A DNA stretch of 64,000 nt from a virus. Lineage: Duplodnaviria > Caudoviricetes. The stretch covers positions 61,901 through 125,900 of the IMG/VR virus record IMGVR_UViG_3300021255_000062; one strand, 5' to 3'. This document shows positions 31,545-47,700 of this stretch, one piece after another (position 1 is the stretch's first letter; every line of letters begins with the position of its first letter). The position numbers and the translations under genes were made by a program. Under the pieces are notes generated by a model. That model was not told the origin of the DNA, did no database searches, and was given only the letters and a program-made list of their open reading frames with translations.

Positions 31545-31860
31545 AGTTAGTTATAACTAATCTATTTTGAGTTTATAAAACTAAAACTAATTTAATTAAT
31601 TTAAATTGAACAAAACTAATTTAAATTAATTGGATTAATTTTAGATTAGATACTGGTATTTAAGTTAGTTGAAACTAATCAACTAATTAGATTGATTGCA
31701 TCTTATTCAAGTTAGTTGAAACTAACCAACTAATTAAGTTAGTTGTAATTAACCAATTAATTAAGTTAGTTGCAACTAACCAACTAACTCTAATTGGTTG
31801 GTTAGTTGCAACTAACCAATTAGCACTGACTAACCGAGTTAGTTGCAACTAACCAACTAT
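31545..31860. repeat. Cluster of GTTAGTTG(A/C)AACTAACCAACT repeats beside an AT-rich tract
   Basis: About 7 near-identical copies; internal palindrome GTTAG-N6-CTAAC. Confidence 0.85.
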
Positions 31861-31883
31861 TATAGGACAAATAAAAGAGAGGA

Positions 31884-32129
31884 TTATAAATCCTCTCCCA
31901 TGTAGTCCTCGTAGCAAAGCGAGCAAATATACTCGCCTTCTTCAAAGTCGCAAGTCCAAGCTTCTAAGTCGAAGTAAGTAACCATTCTGCCACAATCTGA
32001 GCATTTGAAGACTCTCGCTTTATCAGATTCAAGAATCTTACGCAACTCTTTACATCTGTCTTTTCTTCCTGCCTTGTATTCTGCTTCCCATTCGTTTGCT
32101 ATTGCCATTACTTCATTGATTGTCATCAT
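31884..32129 (-). CDS. Small zinc-finger early protein
   Basis: CSDC...CSLC; own promoter and SD. Confidence 0.65.
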   Translation of the reverse strand: MMTINEVMAIANEWEAEYKAGRKDRCKELRKILESDKARVFKCSDCGRMVTYFDLEAWTCDFEEGEYICSLCYEDYMGEDL

Positions 32130-32332
32130 TTTGTTTTCTCCTTTTCTTTTGTGTTTTTGTTTGCCTTCCTTAATTGCCTATATCTTATCACATACCGGCC
32201 TACTTGTCAATAGATTTTGAAAATAAAGTTGCACAAAAGATTAGATTTGTTTTTGTGCAATCTGCTGATCTCTGGCCGGCCTGCGGGTAAGTGAATTACT
32301 TGTCAACCATCAACAAATAAAAAACTGGAATC

Positions 32333-32428
32333 TTAGGATTCCAGTTCTTCTAACTCGATACCGAGCAGTTCTGCGATGTCTTCAAGTGTTGCGCCAAAAT
32401 CAAGAGCCTCTTCAATTGTGTAATTCAT
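32333..32428 (-). CDS. Small acidic early peptide (31 aa)
   Basis: MNYTIEEALDFGATLEDIAELLGIELEELES; AAGGAGG SD, own promoter and terminator. Confidence 0.6.
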   Translation of the reverse strand: MNYTIEEALDFGATLEDIAELLGIELEELES

Positions 32429-32510
32429 TTTTATTCCTCCTTTTGTGTTGCCTTCCTTAACTGTCTATATCTTATCATATTTCGGCTTATTTGTCAACAA
32501 CTTTTTGAGG

Positions 32511-32654
32511 TCAACGGCGAAGATTTTCATCTTCGCCGTTGACCTTTATGTATTCTCTTGAATACTCGTGTTCGTGATCGAACCGGACTACCACGTGGTA
32601 ATCATTCTCTTTAACAACAGTGCCCCAACCATATCTTGCATCGTATACTCTCAT
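32511..32654 (-). CDS. Small early protein (47 aa)
   Basis: MRVYDARYGWGTVV..; SD, promoter and terminal hairpin. Confidence 0.6.
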   Translation of the reverse strand: MRVYDARYGWGTVVKENDYHVVVRFDHEHEYSREYIKVNGEDENLRR

Positions 32655-32873
32655 GTTTTTGTCTCCTTTCTTTTGATAGTTTTATTATAGCAGACAATGG
32701 GTATTTTGTCAATACCTTTTTTAATTTTTTAAAAAAAATTTTTCAATGGCGGCCGGAAAAAAATCAGACCGAAGGCGACGGAACCCCTTCGGCCCTAGAT
32801 GTTAAGGACGTTTCTATACCTCCTTAACTCTGTATTAAGTATAACATGTTTAGGCTAGTTTGTCAAGAACCTT

Positions 32874-33020
32874 TTAAATTAATTTTCTTAATTCCTTAAG
32901 TTCCCTTTCGATTTCGAATAACTCTCTTCTGTCTTTTTCTCTCCAGTGGTCAATCATGTGGATTAAAAATTCTTTATCTTCTAACTCTTTAATTCTTTTT
33001 AAAATTTCTTCTCTTGTCAT
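32874..33020 (-). CDS. Small early protein (48 aa)
   Basis: MTREEILKRIKELED..; AAAGGAG SD, promoter. Confidence 0.6.
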   Translation of the reverse strand: MTREEILKRIKELEDKEFLIHMIDHWREKDRRELFEIERELKELRKLI

Positions 33021-33166
33021 TGTTTTTATCTCCTTTCTTTGTTTCTATCTAAATTATAATATATATTTTTAAATTTGTCAAGTCTTTTTAAAAAAATTTT
33101 TTGAATTTTTTCTATTTCGATCCTGCAAAATTAGACGGCCGGCCAACGAAAAAAGTATCAGATGAA

Positions 33167-33469
33167 TTAATTCATCTGATACCCACTGTAAGTAATTTCT
33201 AAAATTACGTCATCTGTGATATTTTCAGTTCCACAAGTTCCCATTAAGCAACAAAGTAAATCACCTTTTACGTTATCTTCACAACCGTAAAACTGCCATT
33301 CATAACCTACTGCATCAACGCAAGTAACAAGGTCTTTATCATAGTCTAAGTCAACAACTTCCATACACCGCATATAAGTTTCGGGCATCTTTGTTTTTGC
33401 TGAGGTGTGGATTGTGGGAACGAGGGCTAAAACAACTAAACTAAATACTAATACTTTTAAAATCTTCAT
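33167..33469 (-). CDS. Small secreted/membrane early protein
   Basis: Signal-peptide-like N-terminus; SD and promoter. Confidence 0.65.
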   Translation of the reverse strand: MKILKVLVFSLVVLALVPTIHTSAKTKMPETYMRCMEVVDLDYDKDLVTCVDAVGYEWQFYGCEDNVKGDLLCCLMGTCGTENITDDVILEITYSGYQMN

Positions 33470-33625
33470 TTTTTGTATCTCCTTTCTTTATCTATATGTA
33501 TTATATCACATATAAGAGAAATGTCAATAGTTTTTTTAAAAAAAATAAAAGTTAGTTATGTCCAATCTTTTGGCCGGCCGACTTGAAAAAGTCTTGCGAC
33601 TTTTACAAGTACTCAGCATGATTAA

Positions 33626-33811
33626 TTAAGCATTTCTTAAAACTTTAAGTGAAAAGCCTAATTTTAAAACAGAAAGAACTTCATAGACTTGACTATTGTA
33701 AATATTAGTCTCATTAAAAAAGAAATGGATTCTTTTAAAAAGAAAGCCTTTAAAACCATATTCCCACCAAATTTTCCCAGTTTCAGTATTTAAAACTTTT
33801 ATTTTATACAT
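33626..33811 (-). CDS. Small early protein
   Basis: SD and promoter. Confidence 0.6.
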   Translation of the reverse strand: MYKIKVLNTETGKIWWEYGFKGFLFKRIHFFFNETNIYNSQVYEVLSVLKLGFSLKVLRNA

Positions 33812-33956
33812 CTTATTTACTTCCTTTCTTTTATGTTGTGTTGTCTTTCCTTAACTGTCTTTATTATACACTATGTTTGTCTTTTTGTCAATACTTTTTT
33901 GAAATTTTTTAAATTTTGCCGATGGCGGCCGGCCCGCAACAAAAAAAGATGGACTT

Positions 33957-34103
33957 TTATAAGTCCATCAATCCTTTATATAAGTCTTTAATCATTCCAT
34001 CTGTGAAGTGTTTATCTTCCATTACGTTTGCAAAGTCAATTGTGAAAGAATGTTCAAAACCCCATTTTCTAATAATATTTGTAAGCATCTCTTCTCTTGT
34101 CAT
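33957..34103 (-). CDS. Small early protein (48 aa)
   Basis: MTREEMLTNIIRKWGFEH..; leader nearly identical to the 33020 gene. Confidence 0.6.
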   Translation of the reverse strand: MTREEMLTNIIRKWGFEHSFTIDFANVMEDKHFTDGMIKDLYKGLMDL

Positions 34104-34259
34104 TGTTTTTATCTCCTTTCTTATTTTCTGACTTAATTATATCAAACAATCTTACTTTAGTCAATAGACAAAATACACAAAATCATTTGTGCAATTTGCC
34201 GAAACCAGGATCCGGCCGGCCAACAAAAAAAAGAGTCCTGAAAGGACTCTTTTAATTAT

Positions 34260-34442
34260 TTATTTTAAGCTTTTAGTTATGGCCTTAACCATAACCAGTA
34301 CAAGATAAATACCAACTGCGATTTTCCAAGTAAAATCAAAACCGAAAGCCCAGCAGATTCCATATACAAGGCCTGAAGTAATTCCAAAACCGAATGCGAT
34401 TGCTAACAGAATAACTAATGTAGTTGCGATTACTTTTTTCAT
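34260..34442 (-). CDS. Small two-TM membrane protein
   Basis: Two hydrophobic helices; SD, promoter, terminator. Confidence 0.65.
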   Translation of the reverse strand: MKKVIATTLVILLAIAFGFGITSGLVYGICWAFGFDFTWKIAVGIYLVLVMVKAITKSLK

Positions 34443-34726
34443 TTCTTTATCTCCTTTTCTTTTTTGAAGTGCTTTCCTTTAACTGTCTATATAATATCAT
34501 AAACCGGTTTATCTGTCAATAGTTTTTAAATAAAAAGTTGCACAAAAGTATAAAAGATTTTTGTGCAACCTGACGATCCGTCCTGGCCGGCCCGCGCCCT
34601 GGTTAGGTTGGTCCAGGCGGGACTAAACCAGGATAACTTTAGGAAACTAAAGTATTAAAGTACAAAGTACTTTAACACTTTAAAGTGTTAAATTGAGGGA
34701 TCCGGGCCGGCCGGGCGACTCAGCCG

Positions 34727-34856
34727 CGGGTTAGTTGAAACTAACCAACTATCGGGTTAGTTGAAACTAACCAACTATCGGGTTAGTTGAAACTAACCAA
34801 CTATCGGGTTAGTTGAAACTAACCAACTATCGGGTTAGTTGAAACTAACCAACTAT
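34727..34856. repeat. 5 x 26-bp perfect tandem repeat CGGGTTAGTTGAAACTAACCAACTAT
   Basis: Units start at 34727, 34753, 34779, 34805 and 34831; no spacers. Confidence 0.97.
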
Positions 34857-35112
34857 ATTGGATCCGCACACTTTAATGCTTTAAAGTAGCAACTTTGTTA
34901 AGAATTTAACATTCGAACTGACGTTCACCGAACTGACGTTCACCTGGTCGGCCCGCCACTTTAGGGGTTTAAAGTATAGAAGTAACCGGATCCGCCGCTA
35001 CCAGGAGTAATTTTTTGTTGTCGAAAAAATTACCCATGACAAAAATTTACCCTTTACAAATCCGGACTTTTCCTGTATAATCTTAAGTAGATAAGGAAAG
35101 GAGATAAAGACC

Positions 35113-35574
35113 ATGAAAAACATCACATTATTCAACGAAATGATAAGAGTTTACGATAAAAAAGCCTACACCCACAATTACATCTTTGGCATCCGCTACA
35201 AGGGCAACATCTACATGATAAAGACCACAAGCCAGCTTTTGGCGCTGGTCTTAAAGCTTGATAAAGCTAGCCGTGGTAAGGGCTACAGCTTAAGATTCAA
35301 GCCGAACAACAAAGTTAGGGAACTGCTCTTAGCTGAGGGCGCTGAGCTGATTTGCTCCGCTGAGATGTTCGACGAACTGGTTAAAAACAGCAAGTACAAC
35401 AAAGGCGAAATCTTTGAGAAGCTTGTGACTGAGTGGTTCGGTCAGAAGTGGGAAAAGGACAACGTACCATTCACAGAGGATGGCGACCTCACGGTAAACG
35501 GAACAGCCTACCAAATCAAATACGAACAGGCAACCTTCCTCACGGAAGCCCAAATGCTCAGGCTGAGGGGCTAA
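35113..35574 (+). CDS. Hypothetical protein, possible PD-(D/E)xK fold
   Basis: KYNKGEIFEK...DGDL...YQIK pattern; strong SD. Confidence 0.6.
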   Translation: MKNITLFNEMIRVYDKKAYTHNYIFGIRYKGNIYMIKTTSQLLALVLKLDKASRGKGYSLRFKPNNKVRELLLAEGAELICSAEMFDELVKNSKYNKGEIFEKLVTEWFGQKWEKDNVPFTEDGDLTVNGTAYQIKYEQATFLTEAQMLRLRG

Positions 35575-35945
35575 GCCCCTGGGCCTGGACCGCCTGGCGG
35601 ATCCACTGTCCTAATATTAAAGCTAAGCCATGAGCTAAGGTTGCGCTGCTGGTCGGAGCTTCACAGCCTGGCGCTACAATTGCTAAAAGCTATTCGCTCG
35701 GCCGGCCCGCTGCCACTGAGCGCTACATCAGCCGCGGGTCCTGCTGCCGCTGCCATCAACAAAATCAAATCACATTTTTAAACAACAAAAAATTTGACAA
35801 ATCTAAAAAAATTTGATATAATAAATTTAGAAAGAAAAAAGAAATTCAAACAAAAACTAAAATTCAAAAACAAAATAAAAAAGTCTTGACAATAAAAGAA
35901 GTACATGCTATAATATAATTACTAAAAGAAAGTGAGGGCGAATCA

Positions 35946-36305
35946 ATGGCAGTTAGTAGAAAAGTAGAGAGAGAAATTTTAAGAACTGAATACCTTGATA
36001 AACTTATTGAATACTTTAGAAATGACGAGGATGTTTTAAGAACCAAATCTAACGAAATTGCTTTTCCTGTTGTTGGTTGTGAAGGAAATGAAGATTTCAT
36101 CGTTATTACTGTAAAAGTTCCCACAGGCGCAAATAAAGGTACTGAGCCTTACGATGGTTATGAACTCGCGCAGGAATACATCATGAAAACAGAAGAAAAG
36201 AGACGCAAAGCAAAGGAAAAAGAAGACAAAAAGAAAAAGAAGATTGCAAGGGATGAGGAAATCCGCAAGAAAAAGAAAGCAATCGCAGATAAGGGCGCAG
36301 AGTAG
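35946..36305 (+). CDS. Early protein family A, copy 1
   Basis: Paralog of 44008 (shared KSNEIA.PVVGCE, KVPTGANKGTEPYDGY). Confidence 0.75.
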   Translation: MAVSRKVEREILRTEYLDKLIEYFRNDEDVLRTKSNEIAFPVVGCEGNEDFIVITVKVPTGANKGTEPYDGYELAQEYIMKTEEKRRKAKEKEDKKKKKIARDEEIRKKKKAIADKGAE

Positions 36306-36434
36306 CGCCCTTTTGCGTCGGCCGGCGCCACCTTCCATCATAAAAATAAAATAAATTTTTTAAAAATAAGGGTTGACAAATAATAAAAAATAATATATAA
36401 TATAGATAAGAAAAGAAAGAAAGGAAAAAAAGAA

Positions 36435-36878
36435 ATGACAAAAGCAATTTACTTTGATATGGATGGAACGATTGCAGACCTTTACGGAGTTGATGGATGG
36501 TTAGATATGTTGATTAATGAAGATGCAACACCATACGCACAGGCAACACCACTTTTAAGACTTTGCACTCTTGCAAGGGTTTTAAACAATCTTCAGAAGA
36601 AAGGTTGGCACATTGGAGTTGTTAGTTGGTTAGCAAAAAATGGCACAGACCACTATAACAAAGATGTTACAGAAACAAAAAAGGAGTGGTTAAAAAATCA
36701 CATGCCAAGTGTTAAATGGAATGAAATTAAAATTGTAGAATACGGTACACCAAAATCAACAGTTGTAAATCTTAAAGGTGGAATCCTTTTTGATGATGAA
36801 GAAAAGAATAGAACTGAATGGGATGGGATTGCATACGATGTAAATGACATTATCGGCACTTTGAAGGCGGTTGCATAG
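36435..36878 (+). CDS. HAD-superfamily 5'(3')-nucleotidase-like
   Basis: YFDMDGT, VVS, K and LFDD motifs. Confidence 0.75.
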   Translation: MTKAIYFDMDGTIADLYGVDGWLDMLINEDATPYAQATPLLRLCTLARVLNNLQKKGWHIGVVSWLAKNGTDHYNKDVTETKKEWLKNHMPSVKWNEIKIVEYGTPKSTVVNLKGGILFDDEEKNRTEWDGIAYDVNDIIGTLKAVA

Positions 36879-36980
36879 GTCGTCTTCTGCGGCCGGTCGA
36901 TAAAAATCTTGTAAAAACTATTGACAAATAAATTATTATATGATATTATATAGAAAAGAAAAGAAAGGTAGGAAACAAAC

Positions 36981-37154
36981 TTGAAAATTGGTAAAGTTGT
37001 TCTTGGAATTTTTTACGTAGTAATTGCTATTATACTTTTATGGATATTATTTTCCTATATTGAGGTAGTATCACATAATTTGGATGGTTTCTACAATTAT
37101 TCTAGTTGGAATTGTTTCGTTATTTTTATTAATGGATTTTCCCCAATTCATTGA
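36981..37154 (+). CDS. Small membrane protein
   Basis: TTG start after SD; hydrophobic N-terminus. Confidence 0.5.
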   Translation: MKIGKVVLGIFYVVIAIILLWILFSYIEVVSHNLDGFYNYSSWNCFVIFINGFSPIH

Positions 37155-37676
37155 AAAAATCTCACATTTTAAATGTGGGATTTTTTCTCTCTAGAGATCT
37201 CCCAAAATTACTACAGTTTTATTCTTCCTAAAATTATTCTGCGCGGGTACTGGCCGGCCGCCGAATTGTCGGAATATTCCGAAAATATTTTTTTGAAAAT
37301 TTTTTCAAAAAAAGTATTGACATTCTCCCAAAATTATGATATATTATAATTGTCAAGGGGAGAGAAAGGATAACCCAAGGCAAGCCTTGATGGGGAATGG
37401 GTTCGAATCCCATGTGTGGACGCACACAAACCACGAAACTTTTTAAAAAAAGTTGTGATAAACCCCTTGACATTTTTCAGAAAATCTGATATAATAATTA
37501 TAGAAAAAGAAAAGAGGTCAAAAACTTCTCAAAAACTTTTTCAAAAAAAATCCTAAAAAGGTCTTGACAGATTCCAGAAAATCTGATATAATAAAGACAA
37601 CAAAGAAACAGGGGAGACAGGAACTCCCAAAATTAATCAAAAAGGGTTGCGACCAAACGCAAGAAAGAGGTATACT

Positions 37677-38021
37677 ATGACAAAGAGAGAATTCCTTAAC
37701 GCAGTTATTGAGACAGTAGCAGTTGCAGAACTTCAGGATTTTGCTAGGGCAGAAATCGAGAAGATGGACGCACGGAACGCAAAACGTGCAGGCACTCTTT
37801 CCAAAAAGGCAAAAGAAAACGAACCCATTAAGGAAAAAATTGTTGCTTTCCTTACTGGTAAAGAGGTTCCGCAGATTGCAAGTGAGATTGCAACGGCACT
37901 TGAAATCTCTACCCAGAAAACTTCTGCACTGTGTAGGCAGTTGGTAGAAGTTGGCACTCTCAATGTCGAGGATGTCAAGGTCAAAGGTAAAGGTAAGGTC
38001 AAGGGTTATACCCTTGTCTAA
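37677..38021 (+). CDS. Winged-HTH DNA-binding protein, family B copy 1
   Basis: ASEIA..LEISTQKTSALCRQL...KVKGKGKVKGYTL. Confidence 0.7.
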   Translation: MTKREFLNAVIETVAVAELQDFARAEIEKMDARNAKRAGTLSKKAKENEPIKEKIVAFLTGKEVPQIASEIATALEISTQKTSALCRQLVEVGTLNVEDVKVKGKGKVKGYTLV

Positions 38022-38232
38022 CCCTCTTCTTTCCCTCCTTTTCCTCCTTAGGGGACAGACAAAAAGTCTGTCCCTTTTTTATTTCTTCCTAACCGAACAT
38101 ACGTTCGGGCGCGGCCGGCCGATCCCAAAATTTCTCAAATTTTTTTCAAAAAAGTGTTGACAAGATAAGAAAAATATGATATTATATAGACAGTTAAGAA
38201 AGACATTTCAAATAATTAGGAGGTATTACGAA

Positions 38233-38373
38233 ATGAGAAAACTTTTATATGATTGCTATTACGGAAAAATTCTTGTAAAAACTGTCGCAACTCAAAAGAA
38301 GGCGAAGGAATGGAAAGCAACCAATCCTGAAAACTTCTATAAAATTAGATTAGAAAAGATTACGACCCTTTAG
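38233..38373 (+). CDS. Small basic early protein
   Basis: AGGAGG SD, promoter, terminator. Confidence 0.55.
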   Translation: MRKLLYDCYYGKILVKTVATQKKAKEWKATNPENFYKIRLEKITTL

Positions 38374-38636
38374 AACCCAACGGGTTCTATTGGGCCGGCC
38401 CGCCGAGTTGTCAGACTATTCTGAATTTAATTTTAGGGGTTGACACATAGAAAAAAATATGATATATTATAATTACCAAAGGGATAGAGTAACGGTCTCG
38501 GCAGATGTTAACTCACTTCTGAGGACGTGAAAAAATCTCAAAAAAGTTTCAAAAAACTCTTGACAAGCTTTTAAAAATCTGATATAATAAAGACAAGTTA
38601 AGAGAAACACACCACATAAAAAGAAAGGTTAAAAAG

Positions 38637-39011
38637 GTGAAAACTATGACAAGACGTGAAATGTTTGAAGTAATCGTAAACGGTAACATCACTGATGAGG
38701 TTGTAGCAATGGCGCAGAATGAAATCATCAAGATGGATGAGCGCAACGCAAAGCGCAAAAACAGACCTTCTAAAAATGCCCTTGCTAATGAGCCTATTAA
38801 GGCACATATCCTCGAGGTTCTTACTGATGCGCCTATGGTAGCAAGTGAGGTTGCTGAAAAGGTGGGTATCTCCACTCAGAAGGCTTCCGCTCTTCTCCGT
38901 CAGATTGACGGCTTAGTTGTAACTGAGGTTAAAGTCAAGGGTAAGGGTAAAGTCAAGGGTTATGCCCTTGGCGAAGGCCCTCAGTACCTTGACAGAGAGG
39001 TTACTGTTTAA
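38637..39011 (+). CDS. Winged-HTH DNA-binding protein, family B copy 2
   Basis: ASEVAEKVGISTQKASALLRQ...KVKGKGKVKGY. Confidence 0.7.
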   Translation: MKTMTRREMFEVIVNGNITDEVVAMAQNEIIKMDERNAKRKNRPSKNALANEPIKAHILEVLTDAPMVASEVAEKVGISTQKASALLRQIDGLVVTEVKVKGKGKVKGYALGEGPQYLDREVTV

Positions 39012-39184
39012 TCTCTCTTCCTTGGCTCTCTTGGGTTGACAAAACGTCAACCCTTTTATTTTATTATCTTATCCGAACATACGTTCGGGCGGGCCGGCCG
39101 CGAACGAAAATTTTCAAAAAAAATACTTGACAACAAGTATGTTTTCGGTTATAATAGATATAGAAAAAGAAAGGAGAACATAAA

Positions 39185-39376
39185 ATGACAAACACTAAAC
39201 ATCGTGATATGATTAGAGAAAACTTTATAGTTCTTGCGGAAACTGATAACGCAATTCTTTTTGACGCTTACGGAGAAATCTGTTGCGAAATTAACGGCGC
39301 AGACTTCTCTTGTAGTAGTGTCAAAGAGTTCTACGAAATGGTAGAACTTTTTGGGGATGACTCTTTTGAAGAGTGA
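39185..39376 (+). CDS. Small acidic early protein
   Basis: SD and promoter. Confidence 0.6.
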   Translation: MTNTKHRDMIRENFIVLAETDNAILFDAYGEICCEINGADFSCSSVKEFYEMVELFGDDSFEE

Positions 39377-39488
39377 TCCCCTGGCCGGCCCGCAGACTTT
39401 GTTAAAAAAATAACTTTTAAAAAAGGTGTTGACAAGTCCATAATTGTTTGCTATAATATAGGTACATTAAAGAAAGGAAATAAAACGA

Positions 39489-40127
39489 ATGGAAAAAATT
39501 CTTATTATCGACACAGAAACTACTAACACAATTGATGATGCACTTGTTTACGATGTGGGATATATCGTAGCAGACTATGATGGCAATATCTACCACAAAG
39601 ATAGTTTTGTTAATGCAGATATTTTCTGTGATAAAGAACTTATGGCAAGTGCATACTTCGCAGAAAAAATTCCTCAGTACTGGAAAGAAATTAAAAAAGG
39701 TAAAAGAACTTTAACCTCTTTCAGAAAAATCATGTGGACGTTGCGCCATGTTATGAAGGACTACAACATCAAAAAGGTTTATGCTTATAATTGCAGATTT
39801 GATTATTGTTCTCTTGCCACTACTCAGAGATATTTAACAAAATCTAAATGGAGATACTTCTTTCCTTATGGGACTGAGTTCCATGATATTCTTGCTCTTT
39901 CTCGCCACGTATTGAAAAAGTTAGATACTTATAGAAACTTCTGTAAAGAAAATGAATATGTCACCGCAAGAAACGCAAATAGATATACCGCAGAAATTGT
40001 GGCTCGTTACTTTTTCGATGAATCTTTTGTTGAAGAACATACAGCGCTTGCTGATTGTGAGATTGAATATAGAATCTTACTTGAATGTTTAAAGATGGAT
40101 TCAGACTATGAGACGAAAATGTGGTAA
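39489..40127 (+). CDS. DEDDh 3'-5' exonuclease, copy 1
   Basis: IIDTET, AYNCRFD, EHTALAD. Confidence 0.85.
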   Translation: MEKILIIDTETTNTIDDALVYDVGYIVADYDGNIYHKDSFVNADIFCDKELMASAYFAEKIPQYWKEIKKGKRTLTSFRKIMWTLRHVMKDYNIKKVYAYNCRFDYCSLATTQRYLTKSKWRYFFPYGTEFHDILALSRHVLKKLDTYRNFCKENEYVTARNANRYTAEIVARYFFDESFVEEHTALADCEIEYRILLECLKMDSDYETKMW

Positions 40128-40237
40128 GGGGTGACTCTTACCACGTGCGCCCGGCCGAAAAAATTTTTCAAAAAAGTGTTGACATTGGTGTAATTGTATG
40201 ATATAGTATATATAGAAAAGGAAAGGAGATAGAAAAA

Positions 40238-40432
40238 ATGAAATGTCATATTTGTAATAACGAAACTACTTGGGAAGAATCTTTTGGGAGAGAATCTTTT
40301 ATAGTTTGCCCATCTTGCCACAGGGAATTAACAAATAGAATTAAGGTTTTAAGAGTATGTGGATACACCCCAGAATCTTCCGCTTTAGATATTATCATTA
40401 CAATAGGAATCATGAAAGAAGAAAGGAAATAA
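40238..40432 (+). CDS. Small zinc-finger protein
   Basis: CHIC...CPSC. Confidence 0.6.
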   Translation: MKCHICNNETTWEESFGRESFIVCPSCHRELTNRIKVLRVCGYTPESSALDIIITIGIMKEERK

Positions 40433-40437
40433 AAGAA

Positions 40438-40677
40438 ATGAATAAATTTTTCGAAAACTTAAACTATATCGTACTTATACTTTTAATCGTTGGTCAGTGT
40501 ACCATCGGCGCCAATTGGGTAGTCGGTCAGTGTGTTTATCTTACAGCAAATTTGATTAGCGTTTCTCGTTGTTGGATTCTCAAACGTCCCGCTGCCGATA
40601 AAATTAAAGATTGTGCATGCCTTGCAATCACTCTTGGACTTCTCGGTATTAGGCTTCTCGGCGGACTTCCTTTTTAG
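40438..40677 (+). CDS. Small membrane protein
   Basis: Hydrophobic helices. Confidence 0.6.
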   Translation: MNKFFENLNYIVLILLIVGQCTIGANWVVGQCVYLTANLISVSRCWILKRPAADKIKDCACLAITLGLLGIRLLGGLPF

Positions 40678-40794
40678 GGTCTGCCGTTGGGCCGGCCCAC
40701 GTTAGAGACAACTAACCAACTTTTTTAAAAAAATACTTGACAAATAAGAAATTTTCTGATATAATTATTTTAGAAAAAGAAAAGGAGAAACAAA

Positions 40795-40971
40795 ATGACT
40801 AAAAAGAAAATTGATAAAGCAAATTATGTAAATGTTTCCAAAAAGAAAAGAAAAGAAATTGCAAAGGCGAATCGTGGAGACACCTTTGAGGGCTATCGCC
40901 CCGTATATTTCAGAGACAAAACCAAATACAACAGACAAAAAAATAAACAGATTAAAGATTGGGAGGATTAA
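40795..40971 (+). CDS. Small basic protein (58 aa)
   Basis: MTKKKIDKANY..; AAGGAG SD. Confidence 0.6.
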   Translation: MTKKKIDKANYVNVSKKKRKEIAKANRGDTFEGYRPVYFRDKTKYNRQKNKQIKDWED

Positions 40972-40972
40972 A

Positions 40973-41179
40973 ATGTTAGAAAAATTACAGAAATTTATTG
41001 AAGATTGTTACAACCACGCAGAAAAAAATGCAAAGACTTTCCGAGATATTGAAAACTATCGCGCGCAAGCATACGGCGCATTAACGTTCTGCATTGATAA
41101 TGACCTTGTAAAATATGAGGAAGTTGAAGACTATTGGGATACTATGTGGGAAAAATTCTTTCAGTTAAATAACAAATAA
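40973..41179 (+). CDS. Small early protein
   Basis: MLEKLQ..; GGAGG SD. Confidence 0.6.
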   Translation: MLEKLQKFIEDCYNHAEKNAKTFRDIENYRAQAYGALTFCIDNDLVKYEEVEDYWDTMWEKFFQLNNK

Positions 41180-41605
41180 AGATGGAAAACCTTTCCATCT
41201 TTGGCCGGCCGCGAGCAAATTGCACAAAACAGATCCTATTTCTTTGTGTAATATTCCCACTTGTTTTTTCTGTTCAATGTGATATAATTATAAGTGTCAA
41301 GGGGATGGAGTAGTAAAGAACAAAGGAAGTTACTCCCCCTTAGAAAATTAAAAAATTTTCTTAAAACCCCTTGACAAACTTGAAACTCTATGTTATAATA
41401 ACTTCAGAAGGTGAGGGAAGGAAGCAAGGGCAGACCCCAAGGCGCAAGATGCCGCAGTAAGTCTTCCTGATAAAGTCCCACCACCGCAAGCCGAAGTCCT
41501 ACTTTGCGGTATATAAATGTGAGGCAACATACGGGGATGCTCTGGAACCCCTAGGCTGGTAGGATGGAGCAATTTTATAATATAAAAAAGTGAGGATAAG
41601 ATAAT

Positions 41606-41839
41606 ATGTGTGATATTAATTTTCAGAATTATTCCGTTGAAGAATTAATTGCAATGAAAGCAACTATTGAAGCGACAATCGGAGACAAGAAACGAAAAGA
41701 ATATGATATTATGGTTAACAAGGTACTTAGTATTTTAGAAGTTATGGCAGAAAAATTTCCTTGCGAATGGGCCATAGATAATGAAGACCATGTGCTTGAT
41801 TGGGGTGATATTTATAAAGAAATTCGTGATTCTCATTAA
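41606..41839 (+). CDS. Small early protein
   Basis: SD-preceded ORF. Confidence 0.6.
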   Translation: MCDINFQNYSVEELIAMKATIEATIGDKKRKEYDIMVNKVLSILEVMAEKFPCEWAIDNEDHVLDWGDIYKEIRDSH

Positions 41840-41914
41840 TATTTTTTAAAAAATACTTGACTTTTTCTTTTCTCTGTGTTATAATTAATTTACCAAAAGA
41901 AAGGAGAACAAGAT

Positions 41915-42238
41915 ATGAAATTCGAACCAAAGATTAGTGGTACTAAAGTTACAGATTTTGAGATTAGACCCTTATTTAGTTCTCAGTTTATTTCATTACA
42001 AGATGTAATGGAAAAAGATTTATCTCAGCGCACGATGGATTGGATTTTGGATAATATCCGTTTTCATCGTGGCGACAGAACGGAAGAAAATAAAGGTAAA
42101 TGTATTTGGTGGGCAATATTAGATTTTGATACTGACTTAAAATTGGCGGTATTAGAAAATCACCCCGAATATGAAAAAGAGTTTATTGAATATTTCGGTG
42201 AAAACTGGATGAATCATTATATCCGTTTTAATCATTAA
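41915..42238 (+). CDS. Small early protein
   Basis: SD, promoter, terminator. Confidence 0.65.
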   Translation: MKFEPKISGTKVTDFEIRPLFSSQFISLQDVMEKDLSQRTMDWILDNIRFHRGDRTEENKGKCIWWAILDFDTDLKLAVLENHPEYEKEFIEYFGENWMNHYIRFNH

Positions 42239-42313
42239 AAAGTTGGGGTGGACAAAATAGTCCACCCTGGGCCGGCCAATCGGGGCAACCCTCTCAGTTG
42301 CCCCATTTTTATT

Positions 42314-42523
42314 TTATTGTACCAATCTACCGAACAACTGACACAAGTCACGCCATTCCTCATCATCGTTTGCAAAAAATTCATAATCATCTTCTTGTGG
42401 TTCATCAGGAATACCGAGGGCAAACCACACGTCATAAATTTCTTCGTCGCCAAGATTAATAATATAGTCGTTCATCTGTTTCGCAAACTCAATTCTCATT
42501 TTGATTAATTCTTCTCTTGTCAT
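42314..42523 (-). CDS. Small acidic early protein (inverted unit)
   Basis: MTREELIK..; promoter and terminator. Confidence 0.6.
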   Translation of the reverse strand: MTREELIKMRIEFAKQMNDYIINLGDEEIYDVWFALGIPDEPQEDDYEFFANDDEEWRDLCQLFGRLVQ

Positions 42524-42585
42524 GATTGTTTCCCCCTTTTCTATTTATATTATATCCAATTTTTGATTTTTTGTCAAGTACTTTT

Positions 42586-42753
42586 TTAAAAGAAAATCGA
42601 ATGACGACTTTCTCTTTCAATTTTTAAAGAATATCTTATCAATTCAGAAGGACTGAACTCTTCCACGTGTTTGTGGATTTCGTCCAGACTATTAGCAGTT
42701 GCAACTAAATATCTGTAACCATCTCTTCTATCAATCATATACAAAAACCACAT
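42586..42753 (-). CDS. Small early protein (inverted unit)
   Basis: MWFLYMIDRRDGY..; AAGGAG SD, promoter. Confidence 0.55.
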   Translation of the reverse strand: MWFLYMIDRRDGYRYLVATANSLDEIHKHVEEFSPSELIRYSLKIERESRHSIFF

Positions 42754-42975
42754 TTTTTCCAACTCCTTTCCTTTGTTATATATAATATACCATATCCTTT
42801 CCCGAATGTCAACCCCTTTTTTGAAAAAATCTTTTTATTGAACATGTATTCGGCGGGCCGGCCGCCGAGTTAGTTGAAACTAACCAACTAAAAAAAAGAA
42901 AAAATAAGAAAAAAGTGTTGACAAGTAATACAATCTATGCTATACTATATACAGTTCAAGAGAGGAGAAAATAAA

Positions 42976-43641
42976 ATGAAAATCGACAAGAGAAAAAATT
43001 ACTACATCGTTTTTGATACTGAAACCGCAAACGGACTTGAAGACCCTATTATGTATGATTTGGGTTTTGCAGTTATCGACAAAAAGGGAAATGTATACGA
43101 AACCCATTCTTATATAATTCGAGAGGTATTTTTTGGGATGATTGACTTAATGCAGTCAGCATATTACGCAGAAAAAATCCCAGAATATAAAAGACAAATT
43201 GCAAAAGGGGAAAGAAAAGTTGTTTCCCTTTTTGAAGCAAAAAGATTTTTTGCAGATACTTGTAGAAAATACAATGTAAAGATTGCTATCGCGCACAATG
43301 CACGTTTTGACTATCGGTCAACCTCAACCACTCAAAGATACATAACAAAATCAAAATATCGTTTCTTCCTTCCTTATGGTGTTGAACTGTGGGATACGAT
43401 GAAAATGGCAAACGATACTATCTGTAAACAGAAATCTTATAAAAAATGGTGCCATGAAAATGGATACATCACAAAAAACAATCAAGTTCGTAAAACCGCA
43501 GAGGTTCTTTACAGATACATCAGCGGAAAATATGACTTTGTAGAAAGTCATACAGGACTTGAAGATGTGTTAATAGAAAAGGAAATCTTTGTTCATTGTT
43601 TGCGACAGCATAAACCCATGAGAAAGAAATGTTTCGCCTAG
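42976..43641 (+). CDS. DEDDh 3'-5' exonuclease, copy 2
   Basis: VFDTET, AHNARFD, SHTGLED; paralog of 39489. Confidence 0.85.
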   Translation: MKIDKRKNYYIVFDTETANGLEDPIMYDLGFAVIDKKGNVYETHSYIIREVFFGMIDLMQSAYYAEKIPEYKRQIAKGERKVVSLFEAKRFFADTCRKYNVKIAIAHNARFDYRSTSTTQRYITKSKYRFFLPYGVELWDTMKMANDTICKQKSYKKWCHENGYITKNNQVRKTAEVLYRYISGKYDFVESHTGLEDVLIEKEIFVHCLRQHKPMRKKCFA

Positions 43642-43774
43642 GGTCTCCCCTAGGCGTGGGCCGGCGCGCCGCATAATTATGCAAAAGAAATTAATAAAAA
43701 TTTTTTATAAAAAACTATTGACAAATCACTTCCCATATGATATCATTAGTACAGATAGAAAAGAGGTGAACAAA

Positions 43775-43960
43775 ATGTTAGATAAAGCAATCCTCCATGG
43801 CAAAGAACATAGGAAGCCATACTATGGCGCCAAAGCCATTGACTGCTCTTGTCGTAATCATGGGTCTTGCCCTCATTGCGAAGCAAATAGATTATATTCA
43901 ACAAAGAAAAGATTAGAAAAAACTAATTATTCTTTAAAGAACTACTTGACAAACTTTTGA
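43775..43960 (+). CDS. Small basic Cys/His-rich protein
   Basis: KEHRKPY..AKAID.SCRNHGSCPHC. Confidence 0.6.
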   Translation: MLDKAILHGKEHRKPYYGAKAIDCSCRNHGSCPHCEANRLYSTKKRLEKTNYSLKNYLTNF

Positions 43961-44007
43961 TTGTGTGCTATACTTAATACAGATAAAAAAGAAAGGAGAT
44001 AAAATCT

Positions 44008-44364
44008 ATGGCAGTTTCAAGAAAAGTTGAACGTGAAATTATCCGCAACGAGTTCCTTACAATGGTCAGTGACTTCCTTAATCTTAAAGGCGAAGAGGTT
44101 CTTCGTGTGAAGTCCAATGAAATCGCAATCCCTGTTGTTGGATGCGAAGATAACGAGGATTTTCTTGTTATCACCTTTAAAGTCCCAACTGGAGCAAACA
44201 AGGGAACAGAACCCTATGACGGTTACTCCATGGCAGAGGACTACGAATTGAAACTTAAGGAGAAAGCCGAAAAGGCGAAAGCCAATGCCGAAAAAAAGGC
44301 AAAGAAAATGGCGAAAGATGCGGAAATCCGCAGAAAGAAAAAAGAGATTGCAGAAAAGAGGTGA
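44008..44364 (+). CDS. Early protein family A, copy 2
   Basis: Paralog of 35946. Confidence 0.75.
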   Translation: MAVSRKVEREIIRNEFLTMVSDFLNLKGEEVLRVKSNEIAIPVVGCEDNEDFLVITFKVPTGANKGTEPYDGYSMAEDYELKLKEKAEKAKANAEKKAKKMAKDAEIRRKKKEIAEKR

Positions 44365-44825
44365 TTCACCCGAAGGGGTGACCCTTCGGGGTCGCCCTGG
44401 GCGGCCGGCCCGCCGTCAAATTGCACAAAAACGGATCAGAATTTTGTGCAATATTACATATTGACTTTTAAAGAAAATTTTAGTATAATCTAATTACAAG
44501 GTAAGGGAAGTCAAAGAAGTCAAAACAAAAAAACCTTAAAAAGTTTAAAAAAGTTCTTGACAAAACAAAAACCTTGTGATATAATAAAGGTACAAAAGAA
44601 AGGGGATAATAAAAATGACAAGGTTTAGGCTTTAAGCGGTTACCACATCGCAAACAGAAAAGAGTGGCAGGGCAAAAAAGGTGGTAGAAAGTGACGTCAC
44701 CTACCACCGCCCGCAGTATAGGAAATAAAAATAATTTAAAAAAGTTCTTGACAAATAATACAATCCATGTTATAATCTTAAATGTAATCAAAAGAAATCA
44801 CTTAAAGAAAGGAAAGGTACTAACT

Positions 44826-45164
44826 ATGACAAACAGAGAATTTTTCGAAGCAATCGTTAACGGAACTATCAATGACGAAATCAAGGCTCATGCACATGAA
44901 GCAATCGAGAAACTCGATGCTCGTAATGCAAGACGAGCAAATACCCCATCTAAAACCGCAATTGCCAATGCTCCTATCATCGAAGCAATCAAGGCAATTC
45001 TCACGACTGAACCGCAGACTGCGGGCATGGTTGCAGAGAAGGTTGAAATCTCTGTACAGAAGGCAAGCGCACTTCTGCGTCAGATTGTCGCCAATGGTGA
45101 CGCACTCGTAACTGAAGTTAAAGTTCCCAAGAAGGGAAAACAGAAGGGTTACTACCTTGGGTAG
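44826..45164 (+). CDS. Winged-HTH DNA-binding protein, family B copy 3
   Basis: VAEKVEISVQKASALLRQ...KVPKKGKQKGY. Confidence 0.7.
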   Translation: MTNREFFEAIVNGTINDEIKAHAHEAIEKLDARNARRANTPSKTAIANAPIIEAIKAILTTEPQTAGMVAEKVEISVQKASALLRQIVANGDALVTEVKVPKKGKQKGYYLG

Positions 45165-45351
45165 TACCCTCAAGGGTTCGGTGGACACCCTAAGTCCACC
45201 TTTTGTTTTGTTCTTTTAACCGAACAAGTGTTCGGGCGGGCCGGCCAGGTCCAGGCCGGATCCACCAGGCAATCCCCAAAAATTTTTCAAAAATGTCTTG
45301 ACAAAAAATCAATTATCCCTTATAATAGTATATAGAAAGGGGGTCATGCAT

Positions 45352-45522
45352 ATGACAAAAGACAAGTTCATCAGAATCCACCTCAAGAGAGGTTACACCG
45401 TTCAAGACTTCGGTAGAATGGTAATTCTCTCCCTCAACAACTACACAGCAATTCACCACTTCAAAGACAACGGTGAGTATGATTACGACACCGACGCCTT
45501 TTGGAAACTGGAGCGCAATTAG
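45352..45522 (+). CDS. Small early protein
   Basis: SD, promoter, terminator. Confidence 0.55.
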   Translation: MTKDKFIRIHLKRGYTVQDFGRMVILSLNNYTAIHHFKDNGEYDYDTDAFWKLERN

Positions 45523-45642
45523 CGTTCCAGTTTTTTTATTACCACTAATGATCGCCGGCGGATCCATCAGTCTGGCCGGCCTATTTGCGCCGGCCTGGCA
45601 GTTTTAACCAGGGAAAGTTGGCCGGCCAGACCCATCCGGCCC

Positions 45643-45832
45643 CGAACATATGTTCTGGTTGGTCAACATTTCGCGAAACATGGTTTTAACGAATAGTTGC
45701 GGCGCGCATACCATATCTAGTACCGAACATACATTCACCCACAACATATTGTGGAATTTTTTCATCTCAACTATTCGCGAAACATATTTTTAGCGAAGTC
45801 TTACCGAACATACGTTCCCGAACATACGTTCG
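45643..45832. promoter_or_regulatory. Cluster of Gram-positive LexA (Cheo) boxes and tandem NrdR boxes
   Basis: CGAAC-N4-GTTC at 45643, 45805 and 45819 (variant at 45724); ATACCATATCTAGTAC at 45708 and CCACAACATATTGTGG at 45739, 31 bp apart. Confidence 0.7.
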
Positions 45833-45875
45833 ATTCCGCCTGCGGCAGCGGTCGTCCATGGATTACCATCGTGTG

Positions 45876-46160
45876 GGAGCTGCGTCCATCCAGGAGCTGC
45901 GTTTGGGAGCTGCAATAGGAGCTGCGTTTGGCCGGCCAGCAGCTGCATTAAAAACACGTCCAGGAGCTGCGTCGACGCCGGGCCGGGAGCTGCGTATGGG
46001 AGCTGCGCCGGCTGCTGTCAAATTTTCCCATGGGAGCTGCAAAACTCATTGGAGCTGCATCACAGCCGCTGCCAGCAGCTGCAAAACGTTCAAGAGCTGC
46101 GATAGGAGCTGCAGCTGCTGCCAAAAATCACACTTCTCTATAGTAAAATGCGGCAGCTGC
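45876..46160 (+). repeat. Co-oriented GGAGCTGC/AGCTGC repeats
   Basis: About 10 GGAGCTGC plus about 4 variants, all GGAGCTGC copies on the same strand. Confidence 0.85.
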
Positions 46161-46525
46161 CGAAAATTTGACTTAAAAAGTCAAATTTTTTTATAATTTT
46201 TCTTAAAAATTTGACAAAGATTGTCAAATTTTCTTATATTTTCTCCTGAAAATTTGACTTTAAAAGTCAAATTTCCTGGCCGCAAAATTTTCGCTCGTGA
46301 AAATTTGAAAAATTTTCAAAATTTCAGTATAATATATATAGAAAGTGAGGGAAGGAGAAAAAAACTACGGCTCTCCTCCCTCGGCTGGAAATAGCTTCTG
46401 AAAATTTGACAACTTTCAGAAAATCTGATATAATATATATAGAAAGTGAGAGAGAAGTAACCTCTCATTTGATAAATTCAATGTAACTGGCGCCCACTGC
46501 CGAGTGTGGGAGAAAGAAGGACCGT

Positions 46526-46879
46526 ATGACAAAGTTTGAAGCTTACCAGGCAGTTATCAATGGACAGGTTAACGAGGATGTTGTTGAGAAGTTCCGCGAG
46601 ATGCTCGAAACCCACGAAGCTGAAGCTGAGAAACGTCGGAACCGCGCAGCTGAGAAAAGGGCGGAGAAACTGGCCGCTGAGAAAGTTCTGGAGGACGGAA
46701 TTATGGAAGTCCTCGGAGAAGAGCCGATGACCGCATCTGATATTGCAGAAGCAGTCGAGGGAATCAACACTCCGCAGAAAGCTACGGTAGTCGTTAAAAG
46801 ACTCGTGGCAGCAGGACTTGCAACAGTGCAGGACGTTAAGGGTAAGAAAGGCAAGGTTAAGGGCTACACCTTAGCCTAG
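46526..46879 (+). CDS. Winged-HTH DNA-binding protein, family B copy 4
   Basis: TASDIAEAVEGINTPQKA...DVKGKKGKVKGYTL. Confidence 0.7.
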   Translation: MTKFEAYQAVINGQVNEDVVEKFREMLETHEAEAEKRRNRAAEKRAEKLAAEKVLEDGIMEVLGEEPMTASDIAEAVEGINTPQKATVVVKRLVAAGLATVQDVKGKKGKVKGYTLA

Positions 46880-46897
46880 GCCTTAACTGGTCAAAAC

Positions 46898-47700
46898 TAC
46901 GTATACGTACTACTTATACGTTATACGTATACGAAAAACGGGTCTTTTAGACCCGTTTTTTTATTCCTACTTACGTATACATATATGTATACGTTTTACT
47001 TATACGTTATTTTTAAAATTTGACTTTTGTTGATGGTTGTGGCACCTACTTTTATTGACTATTACCCACATTTACTAGTCATTAGCCACATTTACTTATA
47101 TTTATTAATTACTATTAGTCCTTACCTATACTTATATATATACTAATATAAACTAATATAAACTATCAATCTCAATCAATCCTAATCAATCCCAACCATA
47201 TTCTAAACCGCGCGATCCACTTAAATTTTGCTTCGGACTATAGGTTTTGGTTCTAACGTACATTTAACTTATACGTTTTTACGTCTACGTTTTTACGTCT
47301 ACGTTTTTCGTTCATTCCCTTTCCCCCTTACTTTTACTCTTGCCCTTACTCTATTTTTCTACCTACTCTATCCCTACTTACGTATACGTTATACGTATAC
47401 GTTTTGCTTACGCGCCCTTATCTATAGTTGTTTCTCTTGCCCGCTATTTTACTTTATACCTACTTATCGTATACGTTATACGTATACATTTATATACTTT
47501 ATACGTATACGTTATTTGTATACGTTATACTTATACGTTGTATGTATACCTTGCCCGCACACCCTAATTACGTATACGTTTTACTTATACTACAATGTAT
47601 ACGTTTATTTTTTTATTACGTATACGTTATACGTATACGTATTACGTATATATATACGTATACGTAATACGTATACATATATGTATAAGTTTTACTTATA
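46898..47700. repeat. TATACG/TACGTA low-complexity repeat field
   Basis: Dozens of TATACG, TACGTA and TTATACG units. Confidence 0.9.

Follow-up and report, generated by a model that had tools for sequence, protein, structure and literature searches.

What marks the ends of the small gene modules in a phage early region, and what keeps such a mark exact over many copies? This question is raised by a stretch of 64,000 nucleotides (nt; hereafter the window), which comprises bases 61901-125900 of the 125,900-base IMG/VR phage record IMGVR_UViG_3300021255_000062, a record that is judged complete and has a G+C content of 35%. In this window, the 8-base, GC-only, perfect palindrome GGCCGGCC (hereafter the mark) occurs 22 times between short genes. 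An earlier note, made from the sequence alone, had described the region as an array of single-gene cassettes and had taken the palindrome for a crossover core of integron-like gene shuffling, with a protein-binding site or a restriction decoy among the alternatives. Here, GGCCGGCC is considered, with a probability of about one half, to be a boundary of modules that acts at the level of DNA and serves as an orientation-independent crossover point, in the manner of the promoter-early stem-loop (PeSL) cassettes of other phages. Phage early regions contain most of the uncharacterized genes for disarming the host, and their fast turnover has been detailed only for T4-type phages. With an exchange unit that can be read from the sequence, early-gene modules of metagenomic phages could be delimited by a simple rule.

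A palindrome confined to the early-gene array

All 22 copies of GGCCGGCC are exact and lie where the earlier note had placed them; dinucleotide-preserving shuffles contain 0.13 copies on average and at most 2. They are also the total for the complete 125.9-kb genome, so that the claim of their absence elsewhere in the window holds: the mark is not evenly spread and every copy is found within 13.7 kb (32274-45937), each of them in an intergenic position (22/22). The near-matches that had been mentioned exist as well, in the form of one-mismatch copies at four further module boundaries (36320, 36891, 40149 and 43659), and a degenerate GC block stands at a fifth, near 32752. If the 22 copies are aligned in the direction of transcription and their information content is plotted, conservation is limited to the eight bases and the flanks are without information. 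Among orthologous sites in pairs that are 80-98.5% identical, the 8-mer is 96% conserved, compared with 87-90% for its flanks.

The array itself is divergent, with a minus-strand left arm that runs from 34592 down to ~31875 and a plus-strand right arm from 34705 to ~46900, and ~30 genes, all short, are called within it. Promoters with at most one mismatch to TTGACA-N17-TATAAT are concentrated here, with 34 in 31800-47000 and 8 in the other 49 kb of the window; if the spacer is set to 16-18 nt, 19 perfect (12/12) and 18 further (11/12) matches are obtained, with A/T-rich tracts upstream. Each module has at least one consensus promoter. The usual order of elements is the mark, an optional operator-like dyad, an A/T-rich upstream tract, TTGACA-N17-TATAAT, a Shine-Dalgarno sequence, one or two short open reading frames (ORFs), a hairpin and the next mark, whereby the mark and the variable dyads keep the hairpin and the following promoter apart. 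This order, which had been called fixed, stands as a rule but has exceptions: ~12 consensus promoters within modules lack a mark, several modules hold two genes or two to three tandem promoters, hairpins with T-runs follow most genes but are missing at the boundaries 39383 and 40690, and five marks (34585, 34705, 45574, 45620 and 45930) bound gene-free, non-coding repeat units. The mark and the -35 hexamer are 22-86 nt apart, without helical phasing. Since this distance is variable and unphased and ~12 promoters have no mark, the mark belongs to the module boundary and is not part of the promoter. It also lies outside most transcripts, which makes a role in RNA unlikely, and no known RNA family of Rfam was matched in the array.

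Two further features of the array had been noticed, an inverted block and duplicated cassettes. The block 42270-42863 is indeed inverted and comprises two minus-strand genes with their own promoters. However, each of the two convergent terminators lies across the mark from its own gene, and the block is therefore not a simple recent flip. Duplication is evident from three paralogue families (four 114-amino-acid (aa) proteins, two 119-aa proteins and two exonuclease-like proteins), and three small 'MTREE' proteins with 35-44% identity form a looser fourth group. The paralogues exist, but with an amino-acid identity of 38-64% within the three families they are old and not recent copies.

Dialects of the mark and module exchange in relatives

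Six related viral loci were recovered with the exonuclease-like protein. Two of these contain no GGCCGGCC; in equivalent positions, they have 17-18 copies of a sister palindrome, GCCCGGGC. The 82-kb record G001 has 17 copies of GCCCGGGC, all of them inside 11.7 kb, a confinement that matches the one in the window. Orthologous modules are bounded by GGCCGGCC in the window and by GCCCGGGC in G001 and G002, and this switch of dialect affects the 153-aa gene, the nucleotidase, the winged-helix genes, the exonuclease and the 119-aa gene. The viral contigs of the collection were scanned for a pattern of an 8-mer, a distance of 20-50 nt and TTGACA-N17-TATAAT, which yielded 76 stretches with GGCCGGCC and at least 120 with GCCCGGGC, compared with 10 stretches, all of them single hits, for the non-palindromic control GGCCCCGG of the same composition. 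Among the fetched loci, 31 are purely of the GGCCGGCC type, 79 are purely of the GCCCGGGC type and 2, both on one contig, are mixed. The two octamers are also the top GC-only 8-mers upstream of the 872 consensus promoters in 80 loci that were ascertained by protein, where 27% of the promoters have a GC-only 8-mer upstream. In total, the mark or its sister form recurs in well over 100 uncultured phage contigs.

Other forms occur at the same place. The L146/L159 lineage utilizes all four GSCCGGSC variants, the non-palindromic ones in both orientations, and several relatives present, in place of a fixed 8-mer, heterogeneous GC-only blocks of 9-16 nt at the equivalent position, which are in part terminator stems. 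In other, more G+C-rich phages, the core is embedded in a longer symmetric site with GTTAA arms or stands beside TTAGTT..AACTAA dyads; the GTTAA-armed sites show one-turn spacing and a fixed distance of 22 nt to the -35 hexamer. Such arms are absent from the window. On a tree of the nucleotidase-like protein, whose gene is itself a mobile module, the dialects need at least ~6 changes, compared with 13-15 for shuffled labels, which suggests that a dialect is bound to its lineage yet has been switched repeatedly. In literature searches, either octamer turned up together with phages in cloning uses only, and no description as a phage punctuation mark was found. The bare, armless 8-mer, the switch between CCGG-centred palindromes at orthologous modules, the counts for nearly exclusive use and the base-exact break points are contributed by this window.

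The order and orientation of the modules vary among the window and the relatives L103, L104 and L118. The window, L104 and L118 have the 119-aa module, the two exonuclease modules and the winged-helix modules in different orders, and the left-arm module with a 48-aa gene is located on the opposite arm and strand in L103. Three comparisons resolve break points to the base, and these coincide with the mark. The module 38393-39099 is common to the window and to L103/L102, which are ~80% identical and use the same dialect; here, similarity extends from mark to mark and the DNA outside is unrelated. G002 and L123, which are 97-99.7% identical, differ by the indel of a 382-bp two-gene module, both ends of which lie within GCCCGGGC, and L123 retains one mark. 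Public sequencing runs were compared on the basis of assembled contigs only, and most joints in these contigs, which had short sides in promoter repeats, were left out of the analysis. In contigs of run X7, from a different study, 224 bases replace 40698-40728 directly past the mark at 40690, and ~356 bases are added immediately past the mark at 39092. At the mark 37252, alignments to the relatives L115, L119 and L120, which use the other dialect, begin at 37254-37256 and thus inside the mark, while the alignment to L141 begins nearby, at 37273.

A proposed short junction, its closest parallels and its rivals

If the mark is a junction of this early array, which is of the host-takeover type, it would act as double-stranded DNA in the space between a module's end and the upstream element of the following one. 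The stretch between two marks would then represent a self-contained, portable module with at least one promoter, one or two small genes and, in most cases, a terminator. A few marks instead bound blocks of repeats that resemble binding sites. Because it is a palindrome, the mark reads the same on both strands, and with the same 8-mer at every boundary any two boundaries would share a short and very stable identity in either orientation. Recombination between marks could therefore add, remove, replace or turn whole modules without breaking them.

The closest known parallel is provided by the PeSL cassettes in the hyperplastic regions of T4-type phages, in which recombination between repeated intergenic elements leads to insertions, deletions and replacements between related phages and the stem-loops often contain runs of G followed by runs of C (Arbiol et al., 2010, PMC2839356; Comeau et al., 2014, PMC4122927). 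The array resembles these cassettes in its dense, strong promoters of the sigma-70 early type with A/T-rich upstream sequences, its stem-loop terminators and its small genes of unassigned role, and exchanges break in repeated intergenic elements here as well, i.e. in the mark and in promoter/leader repeats. In contrast to the PeSL cassettes, a separate and exact 8-bp GC-only palindrome outside of promoter and hairpin is the sole conserved boundary sequence, this mark also bounds promoter-less units, and the dialects GGCCGGCC and GCCCGGGC are used nearly exclusively across more than 100 fetched viral and metagenome loci. In addition, the phage is long-tailed with Firmicutes-type signals and not a T4-type myovirus. 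The likeness is thus one of function and not of membership; the array is classed as a variant of the regulatory-cassette arrays in phage hyperplastic early regions, and by this analogy the mark most likely represents the PeSL principle with a new, much simpler junction.

Two other comparisons can be made. Bacillus phage SPO1 has a host-takeover module in its terminal redundancy, and T5 has a pre-early region; these blocks of ~10-13 kb comprise many short early genes, and each operon is equipped with a host-type consensus promoter, a strong site for ribosome binding and a terminator. The array shares with them a block of many short, promoter-led early genes, and to our knowledge no shared palindromic delimiter has been described for either region. 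The stoperators of cluster A mycobacteriophages and the KorB operators of plasmid RK2 are short sites with many intergenic copies and lineage-specific versions, as is the mark. However, stoperators are asymmetric sites of 13-14 bp that are bound by the immunity repressor of a temperate phage, whereas the mark is an 8-bp perfect palindrome in a seemingly lytic one.

Several points weigh against a crossover role of the mark. An identity of 8-11 bases is very short for homologous recombination, proteins of the RecT, ERF and RecA families were not found in the phage, and selection for evolvability alone is a weak force for the maintenance of 22 exact copies. The base-exact break points are few. 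In high-identity pairs, 8.3% of the internal block ends are no more than 10 nt away from a mark, compared with 3.5% for random positions; this enrichment is modest, as most block ends reflect divergence and not rearrangement. Furthermore, of 23 clean module-sized indels, many of those in lineages without a mark are located in direct promoter/leader repeats of 17-44 bp, so that the mark is dispensable for shuffling. Finally, a sequence-specific protein reader would account at least equally well for its exactness, its dyad symmetry and the nearly exclusive use of one dialect in each genome. Of the interpretation in the earlier note, a crossover point for module shuffling is supported, in that module order differs among relatives and homology breaks at the mark in the comparisons with L103/L102 and between G002 and L123; an integron-like nature of the shuffling is not supported. 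Exchange takes place at whatever repeats are present between modules, and the mark is the shortest such place. The indels in promoter/leader repeats also favor general or microhomology-driven recombination over a dedicated site-specific system, and we infer that a crossover role, alone or together with protein binding, keeps the mark exact. The array is a case in which recombination at very short GC palindromes can be put to the test.

A junction and a docking site for a protein are not mutually exclusive. It is possible, although held with distinctly less confidence, that GGCCGGCC is bound by a dimeric, sequence-specific protein of the phage or its host that insulates the early modules, shuts them down or controls them in some other way, similar to what occurs at stoperators or KorB operators, with recombination as a by-product. 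An exact, dyad-symmetric 8-mer with unconserved flanks, which is three times better conserved than these flanks, would be expected of such a site, and the near-absence of mixed loci, the clustering of dialects on the nucleotidase tree and the longer GTTAA-armed site of other phages at its fixed promoter distance point in the same direction. The array also encodes four paralogous winged-helix proteins. Nevertheless, no reader was found among the candidates examined. Clustering of 3946 ORFs from 279 loci revealed lineage effects only, and none of the families encoded by this genome follows the dialect; the single family specific to the GGCCGGCC type, with 83 aa, is absent from the genome, and the winged-helix family occurs in only 4 of 32 GGCCGGCC-type loci. 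The variable distance to the promoter, the one third of consensus promoters that have no mark, the marks that bound promoter-less units and the non-palindromic variants of the L146 lineage, used both ways, are likewise difficult to reconcile with docking. The puzzle of one dialect per genome suggests that the sequence has a hidden reader or that the junctions evolve in concert. Such a reader, if it exists, would represent a new kind of global organiser for the early regions of phages. A broader proposal, in which GSCCGGSC is the recognition site of a putative phage or host factor that cuts and joins or docks, modules are exchangeable and dialects represent compatibility groups, appears rather improbable. 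If true, it would define a natural standard junction for the assembly of host-takeover genes, with GGCCGGCC and GCCCGGGC as compatibility groups among more than 100 gut and rumen phage lineages.

The remaining explanations have less in their favor. A GC clamp that needs no reader, placed between a T-tract and an A/T-rich element, could limit DNA melting, the spread of supercoils or that of AT-binding nucleoid proteins, and the blocks of each genome would drift to a single sequence through copying. The heterogeneous GC-only blocks of several relatives and the share of promoters with an upstream GC-only 8-mer agree with a clamp, and both octamers are classic sequences of A-form DNA crystals. A clamp would, however, not be expected to give 22 exact copies in an array that is nearly devoid of other GC 8-mers, nor to place two palindromes at the top of an unbiased list of promoter-upstream GC-only 8-mers, and many GC runs in relatives without a mark are terminator stems; it is thus regarded as unlikely. 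Restriction-modification, in which the sites are targets or decoys of an enzyme, from the host or the phage, with a specificity for GGCCGGCC, GCCGGC or CCGG and the dialects follow host specificities, is less credible still. Both dialects are known recognition sequences of rare cutters with a common CCGG centre, and outside the array GATC is strongly avoided (observed/expected 0.48) and CCGG and GGCC are mildly avoided (0.71 and 0.68). Yet phages normally lose restriction sites instead of collecting them, a decoy does not require precise placement at module boundaries, and methyltransferases of the C5 and N4/N6 types were not found in the phage; nor was a nuclease of the Bse634I/NgoMIV family, a weak negative in that these families matched no control genome. 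The decoy alternative of the earlier note is accordingly left without support. Least credible is the integron-like reading, in which modules would be cut out and integrated at the palindrome by a site-specific recombinase. Small gene cassettes bounded by one repeated site, and a clean indel at this site, are reminiscent of integrons and their attC sites. However, the genome encodes no IntI, and as the earlier note had remarked for the window, no recombinase is visible: neither tyrosine (PF00589) nor serine (PF00239) recombinases were matched in the complete 125.9-kb genome, whereas controls for PF00589 were positive in 14 of 14 genomes. The attC site of integrons is an imperfect palindrome that spans 57-141 bp and folds in single-stranded form; a folded site of this type is absent, given that conservation around the 22 sites is limited to eight bases. 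Integron cassettes are mostly promoter-less and share one common promoter, while every module here has its own, with 34 consensus promoters in the array, and exchanges occur in promoter repeats too. The comparison therefore fails on three defining features, and the integron-like reading is close to refuted.

Layout of the arms, the array proteins and the phage

The left arm (31875..34592, minus strand) is composed of modules in which each gene has its own consensus promoter, with genes at 34260-34442, 33957-34103, 33626-33811, 33167-33469, 32874-33020, 32511-32654, 32333-32428 and 31884-32129. The outermost mark (32274..32281) has the terminator of gene 32333-32428 on one side and, on the other, the dyad (ATTGCACAAA..TTTGTGCAA) and promoter of gene 31884-32129. 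It is followed inwards by marks at 33137..33144, 33572..33579, 33927..33934 (after the module of the 48-aa gene) and 34214..34221, and the mark at 34585..34592 forms the inner end of the arm. Between the arms, a central non-coding hub (34593..35052) includes several dyads, five tandem 26-bp repeats (GGGTTAGTTGAAACTAACCAACTATC; 34730-34860), two 15-bp repeats and the mark at 34705..34712, the inner end of the right arm.

The right arm (34705..46879, plus strand) begins with the gene of a conserved 153-aa protein (35113..35574) and ends with winged-helix gene D (46526-46879). The mark at 35700..35707 is located upstream of a 119-aa gene module (35946-36305), the one-mismatch copy GGCCGGCG at 36320..36327 upstream of the module of an NT5C-like nucleotidase (36435-36878), where the counterpart of this copy in L103 is exact, and the one-mismatch copy GGCCGGTC at 36891..36898 upstream of a 57-aa gene module. 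A module with three promoters and winged-helix gene A (37677-38021) is opened by the mark at 37252..37259; its terminator (38050-38076) and a Cheo-like box precede the next mark at 38113..38120. The marks at 38393..38400 and 39092..39099 are the left and right ends of the module in common with L103/L102, with unrelated DNA leftward and rightward, respectively. At 39383..39390, a stop codon ends 6 nt before the mark and there is no hairpin. Exonuclease-like gene 1 (39489-40127) is followed by the hybrid copy GCCCGGCC (40149..40156) and by marks at 40690..40697 and 41203..41210, the latter abutting the terminator 41178-41202. The inverted module (42278..42855, minus strand; promoters at 42812 and 42577, genes 42586-42753 and 42314-42523) is enclosed by the marks at 42270..42277, with convergent terminators on either side, and at 42856..42863. 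Next are exonuclease-like gene 2 (42976-43641) and a one-mismatch copy GGCCGGCG (43659..43666) that overlaps GGCGCGCC. The mark at 44403..44410 is placed upstream of the three-promoter module of winged-helix gene C (44826-45164) and that at 45239..45246 comes after this gene, whereas those at 45574..45581 and 45620..45627 bound non-coding units, the second with Cheo-like boxes. The last mark (45930..45937) is positioned within a repeat hub of GGAGCTGC (45860-46110). This hub is part of a gene-free region (45540-46300) with at least 12 GGAGCTGC repeats, which occur in the relative L118 too, and Cheo-like boxes; this region and the central hub could represent origins or regulatory hubs.

In five modules, the dyad ATTGCACAAA(N)TTTGTGCAAT is inserted between mark and promoter (32274-32250, 34160-34210, 34530-34580, 41215-41250 and 44415-44450), while other modules contain dyads of the TTAGTTGAAACTAAC type or TGTCGGAATATTCCGA / TGTCAGACTATTCTGA dyads, and relatives present a CodY-box-like AATTTTCAGAAAATT at the place of the mark-promoter dyad. 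Short units without an ORF follow their own consensus promoters at 37350-37420, 38470-38535, 41400-41590 and 44600-44720. One of them has a tRNA T-arm-like GGTTCGAATCC and one is a G+C-richer leader of ~190 nt upstream of gene 41606; Rfam and ARAGORN made no call on these promoter-led units.

The four 114-aa paralogues (A, B, C and D, with gene B at 38646-39011; all on the plus strand) are 38-62% identical and have a C-terminal winged-helix DNA-binding fold, which makes them obvious candidates for readers of the dyads and possibly of the mark. Tandem consensus promoters, separated by short non-coding units, lie upstream of each of their genes. Downstream of genes A, B and C, there is in each case a terminator, then a Cheo (LexA)-like box (CGAACATACGTTCG, or CGAACAAGTGTTCG after C) and a mark. 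The two exonuclease-like paralogues (DnaQ-like; phrog_20187 / phrog_192) are encoded on the plus strand in separate early modules and are 42% identical. The 153-aa protein has 1437 homologues in metagenomes, and its invariant residues include E99, E102, D125, Q134, K136 and E138. Its AlphaFold model is confident (pLDDT 89), but no solved fold was matched by Foldseek or VIA-align (best Z 2.9), and a search for related loci in viral contigs with this protein gave no match. A function as a restriction-like nuclease that reads the mark was considered on a weak ThaI-type lead in a protein atlas and was dropped, as no fold match was obtained.

The phage encodes a tape measure protein of 3609 residues, a large terminase, a portal and a sigma-like protein as well as 16 tRNA genes and is thus a large, long-tailed phage; a T4-like core was not seen in its genome. 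A Firmicutes-type host is indicated by the consensus -35/-10 hexamers of the promoters and by the strong ribosome sites of the AGGAGG type, and the phage looks lytic, with no integrase found. A megablast search of an annotated phage collection gave no match, and the closest relatives show protein identities of 96% and 88%. The public runs that contain the phage are animal gut metagenomes, several of them bovine, and no RNA data set is listed among them. Two further GC-only palindromes, GCGGCCGC (10 copies) and GGCGCGCC (8 copies), are ~50-100 times too frequent across the whole genome. Their sites are found inside genes, for example at positions 4806, 11646, 19394 and 43663 of the window, and of the seven sites that can be aligned to relatives, two are conserved.

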